This document shows positions 2,845 through 26,545 of a stretch of DNA of 64,000 nucleotides, in pieces (positions within the stretch are counted from its first letter, which is position 1; every line of letters starts with the position of its first letter). The notes below the pieces were generated by a model. That model did no database searches. It saw only the letters and a program-made list of their open reading frames with translations, and had not been told where the DNA came from. The position numbers and the translations under genes were made by a program. This DNA comes from Candidatus Shapirobacteria bacterium (GTDB taxonomy: Bacteria; Patescibacteriota; Microgenomatia; 0-14-0-10-38-17): the NCBI GenBank assembly GCA_028695445.1, contig JAQVIV010000001.1, forward strand, positions 6,028 to 70,027, given 5' to 3'.

Positions 2845-3960
2845 ATGGCAACTGTTTTTATCAAAAAAGCCGCTCCTAAAACTGTTGTTGACGATTATCA
2901 AAATCTGTTGCGCCAATTCCGAAAACAACTTCCCTCGGGGGAGGCAATTATTATCAAGCTAAATTTATCCTGGACTAAGTTTTATCCGGCCTGCTCCTCG
3001 CCCCCTTGGCAATTAGAGGGAATAATTAAGGGTCTTTTATCACTGGGGTTTTCCCCAAAACAGATCATTCCAGTAGAAAATAAAACTGTCGTCACCAACG
3101 TTAAAAGGGGCGCCGTTAATCATGCTTGGAACAAGGTGTGCCAAAAATATGGGGTTCAAATTCACTTTTTAGACGATGAGCCATATCGTCTTTACCAACC
3201 CAAAGGTAAAATGTTAATCCTTGATAAAATCTTCCCTGCTGGTATTAGTCTACCAAAAATTGTTTTTAACAAACCCCTTATTAGTCTCTGCACACTAAAG
3301 ACCCATGTTTTTACCCAAAATACCGGAGCCATTAAAAATTATTTTGGTATGCTCGACACCAATCGCCACCACGCCCACCGTTTTATTCACCAGGCCATTA
3401 TCGATTTATTAACTATCCAAAAAGAGATTCACCCCCAAACAGTTGCCTTCATGGACGGAACAACCATTGGTTACGGCTCCGGCCCTCGAGCCATGAAACT
3501 AAAAAAAGCCGATCTTATTTTGGCTAGCACCGACCAGGTGGCTCTCGACTCAACAGCGGCCAAAATTATTGGCCTAAACAATAGCAAGATTAACTATCTT
3601 TGTTTAGGCGAAAAATTAAATCTTGGTGAAAACCGGTCCAAAAACATTCGCTTCCGCTTTTTTGGTCAAATCAATCAACTACCCAATTTTCGGCTCAAAG
3701 GAGCCGATAACGCCGCTTCTTGCGGACAAAAATTTATTTACCACCATTGCCCTTGGTGGCTAGAAAAATTATTATTACAAACTATTGTTGCCCCCTGGTC
3801 TTATCTGGCCTCACGTCTCTATTATGACTTCTATTGGTATCAGACAATAGGCAGAAAAAGGTTGAAAGCCTTTTTGGCATCCGATTGGGGAAAATTATTC
3901 CAAGAATACCAGCAAGAATCGCTTGGCAAAACTCAAAAATCTATTGGCCAATCAACTTGA
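2845..3960 (+). CDS. DUF362-family protein
   Basis: Recalled resemblance to DUF362 proteins (segment 'LCTLKTHVFTQNTGAIKNYFGML'). Family assignment from memory only. Confidence 0.4.
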   Translation: MATVFIKKAAPKTVVDDYQNLLRQFRKQLPSGEAIIIKLNLSWTKFYPACSSPPWQLEGIIKGLLSLGFSPKQIIPVENKTVVTNVKRGAVNHAWNKVCQKYGVQIHFLDDEPYRLYQPKGKMLILDKIFPAGISLPKIVFNKPLISLCTLKTHVFTQNTGAIKNYFGMLDTNRHHAHRFIHQAIIDLLTIQKEIHPQTVAFMDGTTIGYGSGPRAMKLKKADLILASTDQVALDSTAAKIIGLNNSKINYLCLGEKLNLGENRSKNIRFRFFGQINQLPNFRLKGADNAASCGQKFIYHHCPWWLEKLLLQTIVAPWSYLASRLYYDFYWYQTIGRKRLKAFLASDWGKLFQEYQQESLGKTQKSIGQST

Positions 3961-4477
3961 AGAAATCAAAATTTTTACTGTCCACCCGATAGATTTTAGT
4001 TTGGGGAATTTCTTTTCTTAAAAAGGAAACAATTTGGTTATCATCTTCAAAGTAAAAGTCTAACCCAAGCTTCTTAATTATTTTTTTCTTGAAAATATGA
4101 GGAAGCAAATCGGCCTCATTAATGAAAACCCCAGAAAGATTTCCCCCCAGCCCCTTTTTAGCCAGCCACTTGGCGGTTTCTTTTTCTAAAAAACTATAAC
4201 GGCCAGAAATTAAATAAACTTCAAAGTTGGGATCTTGGCTAATTTTTTTCAAGAAAGTCAAGTTTTTTCTTATCGGCGGACGAAAGAAAGAGTGATGCGA
4301 CAATTTCCTCAACCACTGGTGGCCTCTATTGGTAGGAAAATTGTAGACAAGGCCACAATCTTTTGTCCCCCGAAACAATCTTTCTAACCAAGTCTTTGGT
4401 ACCAAAGGCGGGCGATCAATAATCACCCCATCCAAATCAAAGCCAATTTTTATTCTTCTCTTTTTCATTAACTCCAA
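3941..4477 (-). CDS. HAD-superfamily hydrolase/phosphatase-like protein
   Basis: Motif I 'IGFDLDGVII' (DxDGV) near the N-terminus; acidic 'FEDD' motif IV near the C-terminus. Confidence 0.5.
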   Translation of the reverse strand: MELMKKRRIKIGFDLDGVIIDRPPLVPKTWLERLFRGTKDCGLVYNFPTNRGHQWLRKLSHHSFFRPPIRKNLTFLKKISQDPNFEVYLISGRYSFLEKETAKWLAKKGLGGNLSGVFINEADLLPHIFKKKIIKKLGLDFYFEDDNQIVSFLRKEIPQTKIYRVDSKNFDFFKLIGQ

Positions 4478-15195: not shown

Positions 15196-17056
15196 TGGAT
15201 TTCCTTTTTTTGCCAACCACCCTCTCAAACTCCGCCTGATCAAGAGTTTCTTTAACCAGCAGCTCTTTGGCCAATCTGATTAGGATTTTCTTATTCTCCT
15301 TTAATATTGTCTTGGCCTGACGATAAGCTTTTTTAATAATGGCTTCTATTTCTCCATCAATCCTGGCTTTCATTTTGGCCGATACTGAATCAACAACCAA
15401 CCATTCTTCTTCCCCGTCCTGACCATCCCAAGTAACTGGTCCCAAAGAACTCATACCAAAATCAACTACCATACTTCGGGCCAGCCGATTAGCCTTTTTA
15501 ATATCATCAGAAGCCCCGGTTGTCATCTCTGAAAAAACCAATTCTTCAGCGGCTCGTCCGCCCAATAGAACCGACAATCTTTCCATGAGTCGAGTTTTAG
15601 TCTCCTGGGTTCGATCTTGAATTGGAGAAATCATCGTATGACCCAGGGTTAAACCTCGGGCAACAATAGAAACTCGACCAATAGGATCAACATTAGGCAA
15701 AAGATGAGCAATTAAGGCATGTCCCGATTCGTGATAGGCGGCAATTTTCCGTTCTTGTTCTGATTGTAATCTTTTCTTTTGCGGTCCTAGTTTTACTTTA
15801 GTGGCCGCCTCTTCTAAATCCTCCATTTCGATTGCCTTTTTGTTAGCTCTGGCCGCCAAAATTGCTGCTTCATTGAGCATATTCTCTAGATCAGCCCCAG
15901 AAAAACCGACTGTTTGCTTGGCCGCCTTTTCCCAGTCAACGGATTTATCAAAAGGTTTCCCCTGAGCATGAATTTTCAAAATCGCCCCCCGCCCCTGAAT
16001 ATCAGGCATATCCAAAACCACCCGCCGGTCAAAACGACCAGGCCGAAGCAGAGCCGAATCCAAAAGATCGGGGCGATTTGAAGCTCCAATGACAATCACG
16101 TTATCGTTGGGGGAAAAACCATCCATCTCTACCAGCATCTGGTTTAAGGTTTGTTCTCTTTCGTCATGACCGCTGCTAACAGTCCGAGATCGCGATCGGC
16201 CAATGCTTTCAATTTCATCAATAAAAATAATGGCCGGGGCGTTCTTTTTGGCTGTTTCAAATAAATCGCGCATTCGGGCCGAACCAACCCCGACCAACAT
16301 TTCCATAAATTCTGAACCGGCCATAGAATAAAAGGGGACATTAGCTTCTCCGGCTACTGCCCGAGCCAACAGGGTCTTACCGGTTCCCGGCGGCCCAACT
16401 AACAGCACTCCTTTGGGTGTTCTGGCCCCTAAGCGGCGATATTTAGCAGGATGTTTCAAGAAATCTACCACTTCTTCCAGTTCATTTTTGGCCTCATCAA
16501 CACCAGCCACGTCCGCAAAAGTAGCATCTTGCTTGCCCTTAAAAAATTGCCTTGCTTTGGATTTGCCAAAAGAAAAAATCGAGTCTTGAGCTCCTCGGGC
16601 CTGTTTAAAAGTAAAGTAAAAAAAGGCTCCAATCAAAACGAGCGGAATAATGGTTAACAAAATGTCAATCCAAATTTGCGATAGGCTTTCGTCTTTAACC
16701 TTAATTTCTAATTCTGATGGATCAATCCCCTCCTGTTGCAAAAGACTCACCAGACTATCGCCAGATTCTTTTCTGGTGGTGGTAAAAGATTGATCTTGAT
16801 AGTAAAGATCAATCTGGTTGCCGGAAATTTCAATTTTCTCGACTTTTTCGTTTTTTATATCAGAAAGGGCCTGAGAGAAGGAAATCTCTTCTGGTGAAAT
16901 AGCAAAATTTGCCAAAGCCCCTAAAAGCCAAAAGATTAAAAAAATCGCCAAAACCCAAGTCAAAATCTTTTTAAGATCTATCTTTATCTCTACTTTTTTA
17001 AACTTCTTTTGGGATAATTCGGAGAAGGGGTTGGTTTTTTTGTCTTTTTCAGGCAT
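15188..17056 (-). CDS. ftsH: ATP-dependent zinc metalloprotease FtsH
   Basis: N-terminal TM, AAA Walker A '[17 protein letters not shown]', SRH region, 'HESGHAL' zinc site. Confidence 0.9.
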
Positions 17057-17259
17057 GGGTATATTGTATCAAATCAGCCACTAATAAAGTAGGGTTTCTC
17101 CCAAATATCTAATTCCAAGGGTCCGAAGCTATCCGACCCCAGGGGTCGAACGGCTTCGGACCTCTAAAAAATCTTAAAAAATGATAGGCATAAGCGTAAT
17201 TTACCCAAAAGTCGGATTTTCTCCTAAATACTGCATTATGCTATAATATTTTTTAAACG

Positions 17260-17329
17260 TGCGGGGTAGTGTACGGTGGCACGTGAGGCTCATAATCTCA
17301 CAGATCAGGTTCAACTCCTGACCCCGCAA
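17260..17329 (+). tRNA. tRNA with CAT anticodon (Met elongator or Ile2/lysidine type); no encoded CCA
   Basis: Hand-folded cloverleaf. Acceptor tgcgggg/ccccgca; D stem gtgt/gcac; anticodon stem tgagg/tctca; loop ctCATaa; T arm tcagg-ttcaact-cctga. A TATAAT -10 sits at 17242-17247. Confidence 0.55.
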
Positions 17330-17366
17330 CATTGGCCGTTAATTTTTAGCCATTGGTCGTTGGCAA
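17305..17366 (+). repeat. direct repeat copy 1 (tRNA 3' end plus ~35 nt downstream)
   Basis: 'ttcaactcctgaccccgcaacatt' plus 'gg/ccgtta..tttagcc.ttggtcgttgg' repeats at 17512-17567. Confidence 0.6.
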
Positions 17367-17511
17367 TTTGAAAAATAAATAATTAAAGACTGTTTGAGAT
17401 CTGGGGGGGTTGGGTGGTGAACCTGATAAAAGATTCCTCATTGATGATGCATCAACCGACAATCGTGGTGTTGTTACACCAACCAACAAAACAAGAAAAA
17501 GGCTGGTGTCA

Positions 17512-17567
17512 TCTTCAACTCCTGACCCCGCAACATTAGTCGTTAGTCTTTAGTCCTTGGTCGTTGG
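17512..17567 (+). repeat. direct repeat copy 2 (orphan tRNA 3'-end fragment + gtcgttag/ttggtcgttgg repeat); left arm of the inverted repeat flanking the 4HB gene
   Basis: 24/24 identity to the 3' end of tRNA 17260-17329. Reverse complement of 17537-17567 recurs at 17946-17979. Confidence 0.6.
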
Positions 17568-17594
17568 TTCCTGATACTTTTTCTCTTTCCGAAA

Positions 17595-17963
17595 ATGTAT
17601 AAATTCGAAAAATTAAGGGTTTGGCAATCGGCGATGGATTTGGTAGTTGAAGTTTACAAATTCACAAAACAGCTACCCAAAGAGGAAACTTATGGCCTAA
17701 GAGACCAAATAAGAAGAGCAAGCGTTTCTATTGCTTTAAACATTGCCGAAGGGACGGGAGATAAAAGCGACAAAGAATTAATAAGATATCTTTATTTATC
17801 TAAAAAGTCTCTTTTTGAAACAATAACCGGATTAAAGCTTACTCAAAGAATTTATCAACTAAAGCCAGAACAAATTTTAAAAAATTGCGATAACCTTGGT
17901 AGATCGCTTCAAGCTTTAATAAACTCTTTATCTAAAAGCCAAAAACTAAAGACTAACGACTAA
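17595..17963 (+). CDS. four-helix-bundle protein (TIGR02436-like, '23S rRNA intervening-sequence protein' family)
   Basis: 'KFEKLRVWQSAMDLVVEVYKFTKQLPKEE..GLRDQIRRASVSIALNIAEG' hallmark. Its C-terminal codons lie in the right inverted repeat. Confidence 0.7.
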   Translation: MYKFEKLRVWQSAMDLVVEVYKFTKQLPKEETYGLRDQIRRASVSIALNIAEGTGDKSDKELIRYLYLSKKSLFETITGLKLTQRIYQLKPEQILKNCDNLGRSLQALINSLSKSQKLKTND

Positions 17964-17979
17964 AGACCAAGGACTAACC
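17946..17979 (+). repeat. right arm of inverted repeat (gactaaagactaacgactaaagaccaaggactaac) bracketing the 4HB gene
   Basis: Shares 19-nt and 13-nt blocks with the reverse complement of 17537-17567, and directly abuts the second tRNA. Confidence 0.5.
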
Positions 17980-17980
17980 T

Positions 17981-18054
17981 GGCAGGGTAGCTCAGGTGGT
18001 TAGAGCAGGCGAATCATAACCGTCAGGTCGTCGGTTCAAATCCGACCCCTGCCA
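17981..18054 (+). tRNA. tRNA with CAT anticodon (D arm/anticodon stem 'gctcaggtggttagagcaggcga' resembles bacterial tRNA-Ile2 and elongator Met); no encoded CCA
   Basis: Acceptor ggcaggg/ccctgcc; D gctc/gagc; loop atCATaa; T arm gtcgg-ttcaaat-ccgac. Confidence 0.65.
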
Positions 18055-18166
18055 CTTTAGGCTATCAAAGAAATCGGGTTATTAAAGAAAAAAGTTATTT
18101 CTTCTTCCAGCCCGATCTCGTTTTTTAGCTTATAGGGATGGTGTGAACGATGTTCACACCATAGCC

Positions 18167-18529
18167 CTAAAAGATAATTCCCCTAAAAAATAATTCCCAC
18201 CATTGCCGCCAGGGGGGCAGCCAATCTTTAGAGTCAGCGGTCACTTTTTCTATTCCAAAAATATCTTCTGGCAAGATCAAGACTGTTTCGTCCTTAGTCA
18301 AGCCCAAGCTATTACGCGCTTCTTGTTCTAAAAATTGCTCCGTCTTAACATAATCGAGCTGTGCCCTGAGCTGTTCATTGCTTTCTCTTAGAGCTTCCAG
18401 ATCCTGTTTTTCTTTTCTGACTACCAGACCCCGATTGACAAGATTAACGGTGTTGCTGGATAAAGAAACAATAGCAAAAAGCAAAAACAACAATAGCAGA
18501 ATTTTAAAGACTTTCCCCATGGTTGACAT
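18167..18529 (-). CDS. FtsB/DivIC-like septum formation initiator (short TM + coiled coil)
   Basis: N-terminal TM 'ILLLLFLLFAIV', followed by a coiled-coil 'KQDLEALRESNEQLRAQLDYVKTEQFLEQEAR'. Start chosen at an internal Met. Confidence 0.4.
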   Translation of the reverse strand: MSTMGKVFKILLLLFLLFAIVSLSSNTVNLVNRGLVVRKEKQDLEALRESNEQLRAQLDYVKTEQFLEQEARNSLGLTKDETVLILPEDIFGIEKVTADSKDWLPPWRQWWELFFRGIIF

Positions 18530-18647
18530 AGAGGCCGATCCGGTGTTATTATAAGCTATAAATGAGCTTAATTTCTTCACTGGCAAGCTTTTCCTTAAAT
18601 AAAAAGGCTCCCACAATCAATAAAGTAGGCTATTTTTAAACAAACAA

Positions 18648-19520
18648 ATGAACAACAACCTAACCTCTCTTGATGGGGCCATAAGTAAATTCCTAACTCG
18701 CTTGAAAAACGAGAACCGTTCCAGCAACACTATCATAGCATACGAAAACGACCTTAAACAGCTAGTCGAATTCATTGGCCAAGATAATGTTGTCAACGCC
18801 AATCAAATCGGTACCGACCATATTAAAAATTTTAAAAATTACCTCCTAAAAGAAAAAAAATACACTAACAAAACCGTTTCCCGAAAATTAAATTCTATTA
18901 AGTCTCTTTTTCGTTTTTTGACCGCTTCCGGGGTGATTAGCCAAGATCCCGCCAACAATATCACTCATCCAAAAATCAGTCAAAAACCACCACGAATTCT
19001 TTCTCCCCTAGAATACCGCGCCCTAAGAGATGTTTGTCGAGACGACCCAAGAAGCTATGCCATTATCGAGCTTATGCTTCAAGCGGGTTTGCGAATTTCT
19101 GAGGCGGCCAACCTAGAAGTAACCGATATCCAAGAAGATAAAATTATTGTCCGCCCCTACGAATCCCACGGAGGGCGAGTCATTCCCTTAAATAGAGCGG
19201 CCAAAAAGGCGATTGAAGATTACTTGGAAGAACGACCCAAAACCAAAAAATCAACCAACTTGTTTATTACCAAAAACGGCAATCCTTTGCTGGTAAGAAA
19301 CATCAGAAACAGCATCAATCGCTATTTCAAAATTGCTGAAATTGCCGATGTTTATGTTAATAACCTGCGCGATACTTTTGTTGTCCAGCAATTAAAAGCC
19401 GGCGTTCCTCTAAACATTGTCTCCCAAATTATCGGCCATAAGCGAGTTTCTTCAACTGAAAAATATTTAGAGCTAGTCGAAGAAAGAGAAACTGATAATA
19501 TCAAACTAAAAGAGCTCTAG
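18648..19520 (+). CDS. tyrosine-type site-specific recombinase (XerC/XerD-like)
   Basis: N-terminal SAM-like core-binding domain; C-terminal 'GLRISE', 'IIGHKRVSSTEKYLEL' (HxxR...Y) catalytic motifs. Confidence 0.75.
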   Translation: MNNNLTSLDGAISKFLTRLKNENRSSNTIIAYENDLKQLVEFIGQDNVVNANQIGTDHIKNFKNYLLKEKKYTNKTVSRKLNSIKSLFRFLTASGVISQDPANNITHPKISQKPPRILSPLEYRALRDVCRDDPRSYAIIELMLQAGLRISEAANLEVTDIQEDKIIVRPYESHGGRVIPLNRAAKKAIEDYLEERPKTKKSTNLFITKNGNPLLVRNIRNSINRYFKIAEIADVYVNNLRDTFVVQQLKAGVPLNIVSQIIGHKRVSSTEKYLELVEERETDNIKLKEL

Positions 19521-20412: not shown

Positions 20413-20487
20413 TGGTGCGCCTGCTTGGATTCGAACCAAGGACATCTACTTTATAAGAGTAGCGCTCTACCATTGAGCTACAGGCGC
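20413..20487 (-). tRNA. tRNA with TAT anticodon (predicted tRNA-Ile decoding AUA), CCA encoded
   Basis: Reverse-complement cloverleaf. Acceptor gcgcctg/caggcgc; D gctc/gagc; anticodon stem ctact/agtag; loop ctTATaa; T arm cttgg-ttcgaat-ccaag; terminal CCA. Confidence 0.6.
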
Positions 20488-24085: not shown

Positions 24086-24235
24086 TTATTTTCCGCTGTA
24101 CTCTTTCCTCATCTGATACTCGGACGCTTTGCCTTCGTTCCATTGGCTAACCGGACGCAAATAACCAACAATCCGGGAATAAACCTCGCAGGGGGTGCGA
24201 TCTTTTGGAGTTGCCTTGTTTTTCTTTTTAACCAT
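24086..24235 (-). CDS. 49-aa ORF encoding the NrdD C-terminal glycyl-radical domain (MVKKKNKATPKDRTPCEVYSRIVGYLRPVSQWNEGKASEYQMRKEYSGK)
   Basis: Hand-translated; not in the ORF track (<60 aa). 'RIVGYL...WN.GK..E...R' matches the class III RNR glycyl-radical loop (E. coli 'RVCGYLG..WNKGK'). SD 'GGAGG' 7 nt upstream of the ATG. Lies between truncated nrdD and nrdG. Confidence 0.55.
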   Translation of the reverse strand: MVKKKNKATPKDRTPCEVYSRIVGYLRPVSQWNEGKASEYQMRKEYSGK

Positions 24236-24484: not shown

Positions 24485-26545
24485 CTACTTCTCCTTATAC
24501 CCTATTTCTTCGTCGCACCTAGGACAAAATTGCCACTCGCCTGACAAATAACCATGCTTTGGACAAACAGAAAAGGTTGGGGTAATGGAAAAATAAGGCA
24601 GTTTATAATTGGCTGTTACTTTTTGGAGCAGATTTTTAACGCTTTCGGTATCAGGCAAACTTTCCCCTAAAAAGCCATGGATGACAGTGCCACCCGTATA
24701 CTTACATTGTAATTCATCCTGATGATCCAGGGCCTCAAAAAGGTCGGTGGTGTAATCGACCGGCAAATGAGTCGAGTTGGTATAAAAAGGCGCTTCTTTC
24801 TTTTCTTGGTAATTTTTTTCATTAGCACAAATAATTTTGGGAAATTGCTCTTTATCCAGCCTGGCGAAACGATAGGCGGTGCTTTCCGCCGGTGTGGCTT
24901 CAAGATTAAACATTTCCCCAGTTTCTTGCTGGTAAATTAAAATTTTTTCCCGCATATAATCCATTACCTCTAAAGCAAAAGCTTGCCCTTCGGGGTCGGC
25001 AATATTTTTCCCCATCAAGTTAACCAAGGCCTCATTCATACCGTTTAAGCCAATGGTGTTAAAGTGGTTGCGCCAGTAAACTTTATTGCGCTGATAAATA
25101 TCAGATAAATAATGGCGGCAGTAGGGGTACAGGCCGTCGTGGGTAAATTTTTCCACCGCCTCTCTTTTAATTATCAGCGAATCTTTGGCCAAATCCATTA
25201 GACGGCCAAGGAGAGTAAAGAATTTTCTTTTGGCAAATCCCTCGGTTTTAGAGCTTGCTTTGGCCAAATAACCAATTCGAGGCAAGTTGATGGTAACCAC
25301 CCCCAAGGAACCGGTTAGGGGATTGGCAGCAAACAACCCGCCTCGCCGCCTTAATTCCCGATTATCTAAGCGCAAACGACAACACATACTTCGAGCATCG
25401 TCAGGATCCATATCAGAATTAACAAAATTAGAAAAATAGGGAATACCATATTTTCTGGTCATTTCCCAAACCGGCTCCAAATTTTTATTATTCCAATCGA
25501 AGTCCTTGGTAATTGAATAGGTTGGAATTGGGAAGGTAAAGACTCGCCCTTGAGCATCGCCCTCCATCATGGTTTCGGCAAAAGCTCGATTAATCATATC
25601 CATTTCTTTTTGAAAATCTTCATACTTATCTTGGGTTGGCTGGCCGGCAATAACAACCGTTTCCTCGCCGACCATTTTGGTAGGATGAATATCCAAAGAA
25701 ATATTGGAAAAGGGGGTTTGGAAGCCCACTCTGGTAGGAACATTCATATTAAAAACAAACTCTTGAAGAGCCTGTTTAACCTGTTTATAGGTTAGGTTGT
25801 CATAACGAACAAAAGGAGCCAAATAGGTATCAAAATTGGAGACTGCTACTGCTCCAGCCACCTCGCCTTGAATGGTATACATAAAATTAACAATCTGCCC
25901 TAGAGCCGAAGAAAGGTGCCTTGGAGGAGCACTGTTAACCTTGCCGGAAACGCCGCCAAATCCCTTAATTAAAAAGTCTTTTAAGTCCCAGCCGGTACAA
26001 TAGGCCGAAAGGGAAGACAAATCATGAATGTGAAGATCGCCTTGGCGATGAGCCTTTCTTACCTCTCGAGAATAAATTTTATTAAGCCAAAAATTGGCCG
26101 AAATTATACTGGCCACATGATTATTCAAGCCCTGTAAAGAATAGGTCATGTTGGCATTCTCCTTTACTCGCCAGTCGCCCTGATTAAGATATTTTTCTGT
26201 TAACTCATCGGCATCGACCAAACTGCTAACGCTTCTTAATTTTTGGTGAAGCTGACGATAAAGGGTGTAGGCGCTATGGACTTCTTCGTGAGCACGCCTT
26301 AATAGAGTCTGCTCAACAATATCTTGAACCTGTTCTACCTCGGGAGTAATGGAAGAATTAAACCGCTTCTCAAGTTCTAAAACCACCTCTTTGGTTAGGC
26401 GGCGAACCTCTTGAACATCATCTTTACCGGCAGCCTTAAAAGCGGCCTTAATCGCCCTTCCAATCTTATTAGGACTAAAGGCCACTATCCGGCCATTTCT
26501 TTTTTTGATCCTGGTAATTTTTGATTTTATTCCTCCTCTAACCAT
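24485..26545 (-). CDS. nrdD: anaerobic ribonucleoside-triphosphate reductase large subunit (class III RNR), ending right after the Zn ribbon
   Basis: N-terminal ATP-cone ('KITRIKKRNGRIVAFSPNKIGRAIKAA'), conserved class III core, C-terminal 'CPKH...CPRC' Zn site; stops 9 residues later, before the 'RxxGY' glycyl-radical loop. Confidence 0.85.
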   Translation of the reverse strand: MVRGGIKSKITRIKKRNGRIVAFSPNKIGRAIKAAFKAAGKDDVQEVRRLTKEVVLELEKRFNSSITPEVEQVQDIVEQTLLRRAHEEVHSAYTLYRQLHQKLRSVSSLVDADELTEKYLNQGDWRVKENANMTYSLQGLNNHVASIISANFWLNKIYSREVRKAHRQGDLHIHDLSSLSAYCTGWDLKDFLIKGFGGVSGKVNSAPPRHLSSALGQIVNFMYTIQGEVAGAVAVSNFDTYLAPFVRYDNLTYKQVKQALQEFVFNMNVPTRVGFQTPFSNISLDIHPTKMVGEETVVIAGQPTQDKYEDFQKEMDMINRAFAETMMEGDAQGRVFTFPIPTYSITKDFDWNNKNLEPVWEMTRKYGIPYFSNFVNSDMDPDDARSMCCRLRLDNRELRRRGGLFAANPLTGSLGVVTINLPRIGYLAKASSKTEGFAKRKFFTLLGRLMDLAKDSLIIKREAVEKFTHDGLYPYCRHYLSDIYQRNKVYWRNHFNTIGLNGMNEALVNLMGKNIADPEGQAFALEVMDYMREKILIYQQETGEMFNLEATPAESTAYRFARLDKEQFPKIICANEKNYQEKKEAPFYTNSTHLPVDYTTDLFEALDHQDELQCKYTGGTVIHGFLGESLPDTESVKNLLQKVTANYKLPYFSITPTFSVCPKHGYLSGEWQFCPRCDEEIGYKEK

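Follow-up and report, generated by a model that had tools for sequence, protein, structure and literature searches.

A PF05635 cassette with heptamer arms between two tRNA genes of a Shapirobacteria genome, a probable intervening-sequence-type element in a tRNA operon

Where the intervening sequences (IVSs) of rRNA genes come from, and what the open reading frame (ORF) found in some of them does, has awaited an answer since the early 1990s. A locus of Candidatus Shapirobacteria raises the question of whether such elements also occur elsewhere in bacterial genomes. In a 64,000-nt stretch of contig JAQVIV010000001.1 (hereafter the window), a gene of the PF05635/TIGR02436 family, encoding a four-helix-bundle (4HB) protein, lies between two tRNA-CAT genes, enclosed by inverted repeats, with a duplicated tRNA 3′ end on one side and the gene of a tyrosine recombinase on the other. 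A first-pass annotation had read this arrangement as an IVS-like or mobile element and the duplicated tRNA end as the att-like footprint of an integration, and had drawn attention to the recombinase. Its IVS-like interpretation is largely upheld here and extended: the cassette, consisting of the PF05635 gene and two arms of tandem heptamers, is probably an IVS-type element in a tRNA operon. The locus labels used below (L002 and so on) denote the contigs or genomes compared, L001 being the window locus.

A four-helix-bundle gene inserted between two tRNA genes

The components seen at first pass (two tRNA-CAT genes, direct repeat, 4HB ORF and inverted arms) were all confirmed with ARAGORN, Rfam, repeat searches and hidden Markov models (HMMs). 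ARAGORN and Rfam agree on both tRNA-CAT genes (52.3 and 59.9 bits; threshold 29), which are located, like all features described below unless stated otherwise, on the forward strand, at 17260-17330 (tRNA1, initiator-like) and 17981-18055 (tRNA2). Between them, the 4HB gene (17595-17963) encodes a protein of 122 aa. Its HMM scores are far above the cut-offs, at 110.7 bits for PF05635 (33.8) and 112.2 bits for TIGR02436 (24), and it matches Xcc0516 (PDB 2GSC) with E = 4e-16. Its AlphaFold2 model, with a predicted local distance difference test (pLDDT) score of 92, contains helices at residues 3-24, 35-54, 59-87 and 92-120, and superposes on the five chains of 2GSC with template-modelling (TM) scores of 0.76-0.82 (query-normalised) and root-mean-square deviations of 1.6-1.9 A, as well as on 2RLD and, more remotely, on Avd, the accessory protein of diversity-generating retroelements (DGRs). 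The conserved RxxxSxxxNxxE motif of the family (Zhang and Ye 2013) is present, with R41, S45, N49 and E52 invariant in the family alignment, and the leading G of the published motif corresponds to Q38. Throughout the compared set, the ratio of nonsynonymous to synonymous substitutions (dN/dS) is 0.05-0.11; therefore the protein is functional, and it is shown here, on the basis of these ratios, to be under purifying selection. In one locus, L012, the N-terminal part of the 4HB gene (3923-4291) is broken by a frameshift and stop codons, and the called gene begins only at residue 47; in L125, which is near-identical, the match spans query residues 1-122. As far as its reading frame tells, the L012 gene is a case of cassette ORF decay.

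Comparison of gene orders shows that the 4HB cassette is an insertion, carried by a minority of lineages. In a one-genome-per-species scan, which located tRNA1 in 109 genomes, mostly Shapirobacteria, a 4HB gene was found 3′ of tRNA1 only in L046, the other 108 being without it, and in 37 gap-free genomes tRNA2 lies within ~300 nt of tRNA1. The first-pass annotation had proposed to look for an empty site in related genomes, and there the tRNA pair is indeed contiguous: in the close relative L020, for example (FtsH 83% identical at the amino acid level; same order FtsH-tRNA-tRNA-DivIC-Xer), ~65 nt separate the two tRNA genes. Relatives of the cassette, with 72-95% amino acid identity, occur between the same two tRNAs in L206, L013, L204, L010, L012/L125 and L009, and their similarity is not in step with the local gene order, since the L013 protein (84%) comes from another arrangement and the L010 protein (77%) from the same one. 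Confidence in the anatomy of the cassette and in its insertion is high.

The cassette also appears to have moved recently. The exact 4HB protein is encoded on eight contigs, among which L002, L003 and L046 represent a second species with the same gene order as the window. The two species are ~79% identical over 20 kb, FtsH included, and yet a block of 483 nt (17557-18039) is perfectly identical between them, with flanks again at ~79% and with the next longest perfect runs reaching 75 nt (tRNA1) and 44 nt. The block is backed by independent assemblies of either species (L003 and L046 for one, L006-L008 for the other). Similarly, the synonymous divergence (dS) of the 4HB gene is 0 between L001 and L002, compared with 0.33 and 0.50 to the next alleles, L124 and L206. 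A recent exchange of the cassette between species is thereby shown at the level of nucleotide identity. The left edge of the block falls inside the left arm and its right edge in the T loop of tRNA2, and the block looks like an allelic replacement by homologous recombination, anchored in the conserved flanks.

The cassette is not the only occupant of this gap. One or two GIY-YIG genes, a helix-turn-helix (HTH) gene or a Bro-N gene are found between tRNA1 and tRNA2 in L050, L035, L054, L099/L106/L021 and L115; in L035, whose Xer-like protein is 89% identical to that of the window, a GIY-YIG gene fills the gap instead. The HTH gene has a LAGLIDADG-like C-terminus as judged by eye, Pfam giving HTH families only. 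The variety of its occupants marks the tRNA gap as a hot spot of small selfish genes. In L054, which has two GIY-YIG copies in tandem, the promoter and the first bases of tRNA2 are repeated behind each copy. Two further gaps contain hairpins: the 45-nt gap of L118 holds one with two TTAGTCT heptamers, and that of L025 holds an ORF-less one made of repeat-like arms, followed by an extra tRNA; either may be a remnant of the cassette or a relative of it that has no ORF. A survey of rRNA genes in the Candidate Phyla Radiation (CPR) described GIY-YIG, LAGLIDADG and 23S_rRNA_IVP ORFs inserted in 16S and 23S genes (J Bacteriol 2024, doi 10.1128/jb.00074-24). The same three gene kinds occupy the tRNA gap of Shapirobacteria, which belong to the same host group; the survey itself is devoted to rRNA genes only and mentions neither tRNA operons nor heptamer arms.

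Heptamer arms and a model of precursor processing

The inverted repeats around the gene consist of tandem heptamers, a feature absent from the first-pass annotation. The left arm (17536-17570, best period 7) is a series of five heptamers, TTAGTCG, TTAGTCT, TTAGTCC, TTGGTCG and TTGGTTC, with the unit TTRGTCN, and fits the motif C-N-W-Y-A-G-H introduced below. The right arm (17943-17979), identified by inverted-repeat search, folding and duplex energy, is built from the complement, AAACTAA, AGACTAA, CGACTAA, AGACCAA, GGACTAA and a final CC, which again makes about five heptamers; it overlaps the last codons and the stop codon of the 4HB gene and ends 1-2 nt before tRNA2. As an inverted repeat, 17525-17569 pairs with 17944-17988 (45 nt, 78% complementary), with a core of 25 nt at 92% between 17536-17560 and 17939-17963. 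Folding of the segment, another check put forward at first pass, brings the arms together: as RNA, their duplex reaches -38.3 kcal/mol against -16.4 +/- 3.5 in 200 shuffles (best shuffle -26.9; z = -6.2), the arm-pairing score of the window is z = 10, and in the fold of the whole region the arms are paired and the tRNA2 cloverleaf is intact.

An ORF of the same family behind tandem heptamers is known from rRNA. In the 23S IVS of Coxiella burnetii, two to four GACAGAT heptamers lie 5′ of the S23p ORF and give rise to a 28-bp stem, which is cut by RNase III in vitro at the first repeat, the ends having been mapped by rapid amplification of cDNA ends (PMC4990558). The 23S IVSs with an S23p/PF05635 ORF (Coxiella burnetii; Leptospira) share with the window cassette the ORF family, the tandem heptamers before the ORF, the inverted-repeat stem, the location within a stable-RNA transcription unit and the patchy distribution, and GACAGAT, rotated to TGACAGA, fits C-N-W-Y-A-G-H. 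With the same ORF family and a fitting heptamer, the module of the window is therefore an IVS module at another host site. The differences concern the site and its consequences. The 23S IVSs sit in helix 25 or 45 of the 23S rRNA, whereas the window cassette sits between two tRNA genes, where its excision need not fragment a mature RNA; the 4HB protein of the window is under strong purifying selection, whereas the Coxiella ORF has been argued to be decaying (PMC4990558); and cleavage by RNase III has been demonstrated for the Coxiella IVS and is inferred for the window cassette. The proposal that an IVS-like arrangement between tRNAs behaves as an insertion is borne out by the empty sites, by the 100% identical cassette in a genome that is otherwise ~79% identical and by this match to the Coxiella module.

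The arms are not a peculiarity of this locus. A metagenome scan with an alignment of the 4HB protein yielded 80 loci (37-100% identity), which together with six others provided 73 distinct loci for an arm test, arms being called at z >= 5. Flanking complementary arms were found in 34 of the 73, most of them far from any tRNA. In addition, arm pairing is significant in every testable orthologous locus despite sequence differences (z of 9.5 in L002, 8.8 in L124, 6.3 in L009, 5.7 in L125 and 5.1 in L013). Period 7 is the best period in all 34 left arms and in 32 of the 34 right arms. The unit sequences vary by locus (TTAGTCN, CAGCTNT, AGTCGTC, GACGATG and others) and yet can be phased to C-N-W-Y-A-G-H, in which the G is invariant and whose information content is 5.84 bits compared with 3.27 +/- 0.25 in shuffled controls (maximum 3.86). 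On this alignment of arms, the heptamers are shown here to be a family-wide trait with one motif in common with the Coxiella 23S IVS. The shared motif suggests recognition by a protein, for which the Avd-like 4HB protein is the obvious candidate, although this is speculation.

Regarding genomic context, a tRNA gene adjoins the 4HB gene in 12 of the 80 scan loci, seven of which have same-strand tRNAs on both sides. The pairs around armed 4HB genes are Phe/Gly, Leu/Pro, Cys/Ser (two loci) and Met/Met, and in the tRNA-flanked loci the left heptamer arm begins 1-10 nt after the upstream tRNA, with the complementary arm before the downstream tRNA. One armed 4HB gene (L177, 4077-4331) lies ~1.2 kb from a CRISPR array (four CRISPR-DR7 repeats in Rfam), in line with the published association of the family with cas genes, PF05635 genes having been reported inside cas operons (PMC3936711). 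The open-access literature, an incomplete sample and as such weak evidence, yielded nothing on 4HB genes between tRNAs or on family-wide heptamer arms.

Other systems share single features with the cassette. Cyanobacterial short tandemly repeated repetitive (STRR) sequences are tandem 7-nt units. The tandem heptamers of Xanthomonas and Nostoc, which in Xanthomonas often form convergent inverted pairs (PMC4692102), resemble the arms in their 7-nt tandem units but are G-rich, and the paper draws no link to PF05635 genes. With Avd, the window protein has in common the four-helix fold (TM 0.70-0.76 to 4DWL, 8UB7 and 8UB8) and a distant sequence relation, but it remains under the Avd cut-offs (PF22296, 17.3 against 40; NF033474, 21.2 against 80). 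No Pfam reverse-transcriptase domain was detected in the genes called within 10 kb, template and variable repeats not having been searched for, and heptamer arms are not a known feature of DGRs.

How the cassette would be expressed can be read from its surroundings. An extended -10 promoter-like motif, TGCTATAAT, lies at 17239-17247, 12 nt 5′ of tRNA1, and is the sole such motif between FtsH and tRNA2; 17331-17980 contains no match of at least 5/6 to TATAAT, and a scan for consensus -35/-10 promoters found none in 17000-18500. In empty gaps, TGnTATAAT occurs within 60 nt of tRNA2 in 26 of the 37 and a terminator-like T-run follows soon after tRNA1 in 29 of the 37, whereas a promoter motif near tRNA2 is missing from all five filled loci. 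The cassette occupies the usual site of the T-run and promoter, so tRNA1, the ORF and tRNA2 would be co-transcribed from the tRNA1 promoter, and a single transcript is the simplest reading of these motifs.

In such a transcript, the arms could form ~30-34 bp of imperfect duplex, mismatched at the variable position of the repeat. At its base, this stem would adjoin a tRNA 3′ end on one side and the 5′ end of tRNA2 on the other. A double-strand-specific RNase (RNase III, as in rRNA IVSs), together with RNase P and 3′-end trimming, would then remove the insert from the precursor, leaving both tRNAs to normal maturation and releasing a hairpin that contains the 4HB mRNA. The region is thus probably a passenger cassette of IVS type within a tRNA operon, and it would be cut out of the precursor at its stem, the chances of this particular processing mechanism being about even.

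Several points weigh against this account. The left edge of the identical block, lying within the arm, fits allelic replacement by homologous recombination better than a fresh insertion of the whole element. About 68 of the 80 family loci are not beside a tRNA and none of the 20 tested, the best-armed ones of the family, is in rRNA; a stable-RNA context is therefore not required. Furthermore, selection confined to the mRNA-sense transcript would favour G.U over A.C mismatches in the arms, and on the coding strand these number 75 and 59 respectively (p = 0.19), which is no significant excess, so selection could act on the DNA and not on the RNA. Co-transcription and RNase III cleavage are themselves both inferred from sequence, and no RNase III gene was found within the 64-kb window.

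The possibility that the arms act as DNA, as terminal inverted arrays bound by the 4HB protein or a host factor within a transposon-like unit whose RNA processing would be incidental, gains from this lack of strand bias among wobble-compatible mismatches, from the single motif with its invariant G across 34 loci, and from the presence/absence polymorphism of the cassette at several target sites. It is nevertheless unlikely, given that the protein has no catalytic domain and is a plain four-helix bundle related to the RNA-binding Avd, that no target-site duplication was seen at the tRNA-flanked loci, that arm sequences vary by locus, unlike copies of one transposon, and that the Coxiella stem is a proven RNase III substrate. 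A miniature inverted-repeat transposable element or an insertion sequence would be expected in several near-identical copies with common terminal repeats and a target-site duplication; the window holds one copy of the 4HB gene and no second copy of the spacer described below, the arms differ between loci and the tRNA-flanked loci are free of duplications. Nor is the gene likely to be an ancestral member of a tRNA-Met operon, lost from the empty sites: tRNA1-4HB-tRNA2 does occur in lineages on either side of a local inversion (see below), but with 108 of the 109 species genomes lacking the gene, the T-run and promoter present in most empty gaps, a 4HB similarity that does not track gene order (L013 against L010) and the 483-nt block arguing for recent exchange, an ancestral gene is highly improbable. 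On balance, the Coxiella cleavage, the position of the arms against tRNA ends and the lack of a promoter near tRNA2 favour a role of the arms in RNA.

The duplicated tRNA end, the recombinase and the flanks

Upstream of the cassette, 17305-17363 is repeated at 17509-17567 (59 nt, 86% identity, 204 nt apart), with an exact core of 24 nt (17310-17333 and 17514-17537) that starts at the first T-loop base and extends slightly beyond the tRNA 3′ end. The first copy comprises the T loop to the 3′ end of tRNA1 (17310-17331) and a degenerate heptamer trailer (17332-17363), which resembles the left arm of L124. It is followed by a spacer (17364-17513), homologous in L002 and L010, and by the orphan copy of the tRNA1 3′ end, TTCAACTCCTGACCCCGCAACA (17514-17535), whose junction lies at the first T-loop base. 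Within the spacer, a 29-nt segment (17399-17427) shows 76% complementarity to the T arm and acceptor 3′ strand, both of tRNA1 and of the orphan; this inverted copy had escaped the first-pass annotation.

Spacer and orphan are found in four of the nine cassette lineages (L001, L002, L124 and L010), among which the junction GTGTCRTY/TTCAACTCC at the first T-loop base is constant. In L206 (95% amino acid identity), L013, L012/L125 and L009, the left arm directly follows tRNA1 and there is no orphan repeat; therefore the orphan is independent of the cassette. The ninth lineage, L204, is not scorable in this respect, its contig beginning 15 nt before the ORF. The repeat of L010 is only 23 nt long, from T loop to 3′ end, and those of L001 and L002 include the heptamer trailer; the two copies of L002 are identical over 53 nt, compared with 86% in the window, which suggests gene conversion. 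No further copies of the spacer exist in the window, in ~200 loci or in viral contigs, and local alignment of the spacer with the terminator and promoter of empty gaps recovered the orphan alone. A lone viral match to the tRNA 3′ end proved to be an unrelated high-GC phage tRNA array, and apparent orphan repeats in L035 and L065 are 100-N scaffold gaps.

The repeat starts with the first base of the T loop and reaches the end of the tRNA, a location at which tRNA-targeting integrases typically cross over. The att-like footprint recognised at first pass stands to this extent; it does not stand as the footprint of the cassette, because the repeats enclose ~180 bp without any gene and are absent from the cassette loci L206, L013, L012/L125 and L009. 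As in tRNA-targeting integrative elements, an intact tRNA and an orphan copy delimit the segment; unlike in these elements, the copies are only ~180 bp apart, no integrase and no ORF with homologues lies between them, the tRNA 3′ half occurs there in inverted orientation as well, and the nearby recombinase is a conserved Xer-like neighbour. From this layout, the orphan and the spacer (17332-17535) are regarded as the scar of a separate recombination event at the tRNA1 T loop and not as a footprint of the cassette.

The recombinase (18648-19520), as characterised by HMM matches and a gene-neighbourhood scan, is Xer-like. Its best matches are XerD, XerA and XerC, all under the equivalog cut-offs (XerD 161.8 against 329.6; XerC 155 against 335). 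It lies within 3 kb of tRNA1 in 88 of the 109 species genomes, usually with DivIC, and nearly all of these are without cassette and repeat. As the gene stands beside tRNA1 with or without inserts, it belongs to the conserved neighbourhood and not to the element, nor is it the cause of the repeats, and from its position beside DivIC it presumably has a housekeeping role. The link to the recombinase drawn at first pass is thus abandoned, the gene being moreover outside the repeat-bounded segment. In most genomes (L014-L122, compared with 18167-19520 of the window), DivIC and Xer lie upstream of tRNA1 as Xer(-) DivIC(+); in the clade of the window (L020, L025, L035, L040, L046, L053 and L071), they lie downstream of the tRNAs as DivIC(-) Xer(+). 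As these gene orders indicate, the tRNA block has switched orientation with respect to the neighbouring genes. Upstream of the Xer-like gene, the 5′ end of the divergent DivIC gene contains a near-consensus promoter (TTGACA, 18 nt, TG-TATTAT; 18523-18552).

Several explanations of the duplicated tRNA end have to be compared. A mobile element integrated in the tRNA by the neighbouring recombinase, with the 59-nt repeats as attL and attR and the 4HB gene as cargo, is most improbable: the repeat does begin at the first T-loop base and cover the tRNA 3′ end, and a tyrosine recombinase is 600 bp away, but the 4HB gene is outside the repeat-bounded segment, this segment of ~180 bp has no ORF, the Xer-like gene is beside the tRNA in genomes that nearly all lack cassette and repeat, four groups of cassette loci (L206, L013, L012/L125, L009) have no repeat and no viral contig carries the spacer. 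An integron cassette with attC was rejected as well, the integron-integrase models scoring far under their cut-off and the recombinase being a conserved neighbour. A function as a tRNA-like minihelix, in which 17402-17414 pairs with the 3′ strand of the orphan and keeps an RNase P/RNase Z-type site 5′ of the left arm, would suit the complementary segment, kept in L001, L002 and L010 with two differences that retain pairing as G.U, the position of the left arm 1-10 nt after a tRNA 3′ end in every tRNA-flanked locus, and the tRNA-like fold that ARAGORN reports at relaxed thresholds (poor models, introns allowed). This function is doubtful, however, since the fold z-scores are weak (-1.0 and -1.2, with -3.5 in L010 only), Rfam gives no match, the two G.U-compatible changes are not significant and the cassette lineages L206, L013, L012/L125 and L009 do without the spacer. 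A reading that comes closer, although still somewhat short of an even chance, traces the duplication to an old site-specific integration at the tRNA1 T loop, or to repair of a double-strand break there, with most of the sequence deleted later and gene conversion maintaining the likeness of the remnant to tRNA1; it covers 17332-17535 only and is compatible with the IVS-type cassette. For such a remnant speak the same junction in four lineages, the limits of the L010 repeat (23 nt, T loop to 3′ end), the L002 copies identical over 53 nt against 86% in the window, and the gap being a hot spot for GIY-YIG, LAGLIDADG-like and Bro-N genes. Nevertheless, an intact element was not found, simple integration does not explain the inverted copy of the tRNA 3′ half at 17399-17427, and the comparison is based on three full sequences and one partial.

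The remaining features of the window concern its tRNA genes and flanks. The only further tRNA is tRNA-Ile(TAT), on the reverse strand at 20413-20487 (ARAGORN, Rfam). From its 1:72 position, a U1-A72 pair in the window and a C1xA72 mismatch in the L010 and L206 orthologues, tRNA1 is probably the initiator, and the presence of a tRNA-Ile(UAU) in the genome makes tRNA2 the likely elongator tRNA-Met. Rfam found no rRNA in the window and, at gathering and relaxed thresholds, tRNAs only, the spacer and the arms being without a match. Between the start of FtsH and tRNA1, 17120-17162 is a near-perfect 21-nt palindrome, GGTCCGAAGCTATCCGACCCC / GGGGTCGAACGGCTTCGGACC, of which L002 has a related, rearranged version. 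Just 3′ of tRNA2, 18074-18170 comprises a stem, AAAGAAAA, a small hairpin, TTTCTTCC and a closing stem, followed by a GGGATGGTGTGAACG...CACACC hairpin. This motif aligns with the leader directly 5′ of the GIY-YIG genes in the tRNA gap of L050, L054 and L035, and also with the region 3′ of tRNA2 in L004; it is absent from L002, and no GIY-YIG ORF follows it in the window. It may be the remnant of a GIY-YIG element or a terminator-like element.

Further differences between the assemblies were noted. The anaerobic ribonucleotide reductase NrdD has 686 aa in the window (24485-26545) and 1094 aa in the sister species (L002, 16610-19894), the extra part of the latter giving weak intein and LAGLIDADG matches in Pfam and a ~1.2-kb alignment gap; to judge by this alignment, the length difference looks like an intein present in only one of the two species. 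A 49-aa ORF with an NRDD fragment (about 24086-24235) adjoins the window gene. In addition, L005 (a Logan SRR27676593 contig of 3368 nt) has another upstream context (Xer, DivIC), joining within the tRNA1 D loop, and is identical to the window from that junction onward, with the result that DivIC is present on both sides; L004 equals the window up to the T loop of tRNA2 and is diverged past that point. Either recombination has broken these sequences at tRNAs or the metagenome assemblies are chimeric.

Significance for intervening sequences and their ORFs

The cassette shows that the module of ORF and arms is not tied to rRNA, as it occurs between tRNA genes, in pairs of at least four kinds, and in many other contexts. 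It is both conserved and mobile, moving between species while its protein stays under purifying selection, and a single 7-nt motif underlies its arms in Coxiella and CPR bacteria alike. For annotation, the lesson is that a recombinase beside a duplicated tRNA end need not be its cause, and that the tRNA spacers of CPR bacteria are insertion hot spots.

It is conceivable, if improbable on present evidence, that the 4HB ORF with its C-N-W-Y-A-G-H arrays is a self-contained unit, in which the Avd-like pentamer would recognise the arrays around its own gene, in RNA or DNA form, and help the unit to persist or to spread into strongly transcribed operons such as those of rRNA, tRNA and cas genes. 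Such units would form a mobile or selfish class without a recognisable transposase, integrase or reverse transcriptase, of which the classical rRNA IVSs would be only the best-known landing site. What has been a curiosity of rRNA genes hence turns into testable questions: does the 4HB protein bind the heptamer arrays, and is their stem a general "cut me out" device for host transcripts?

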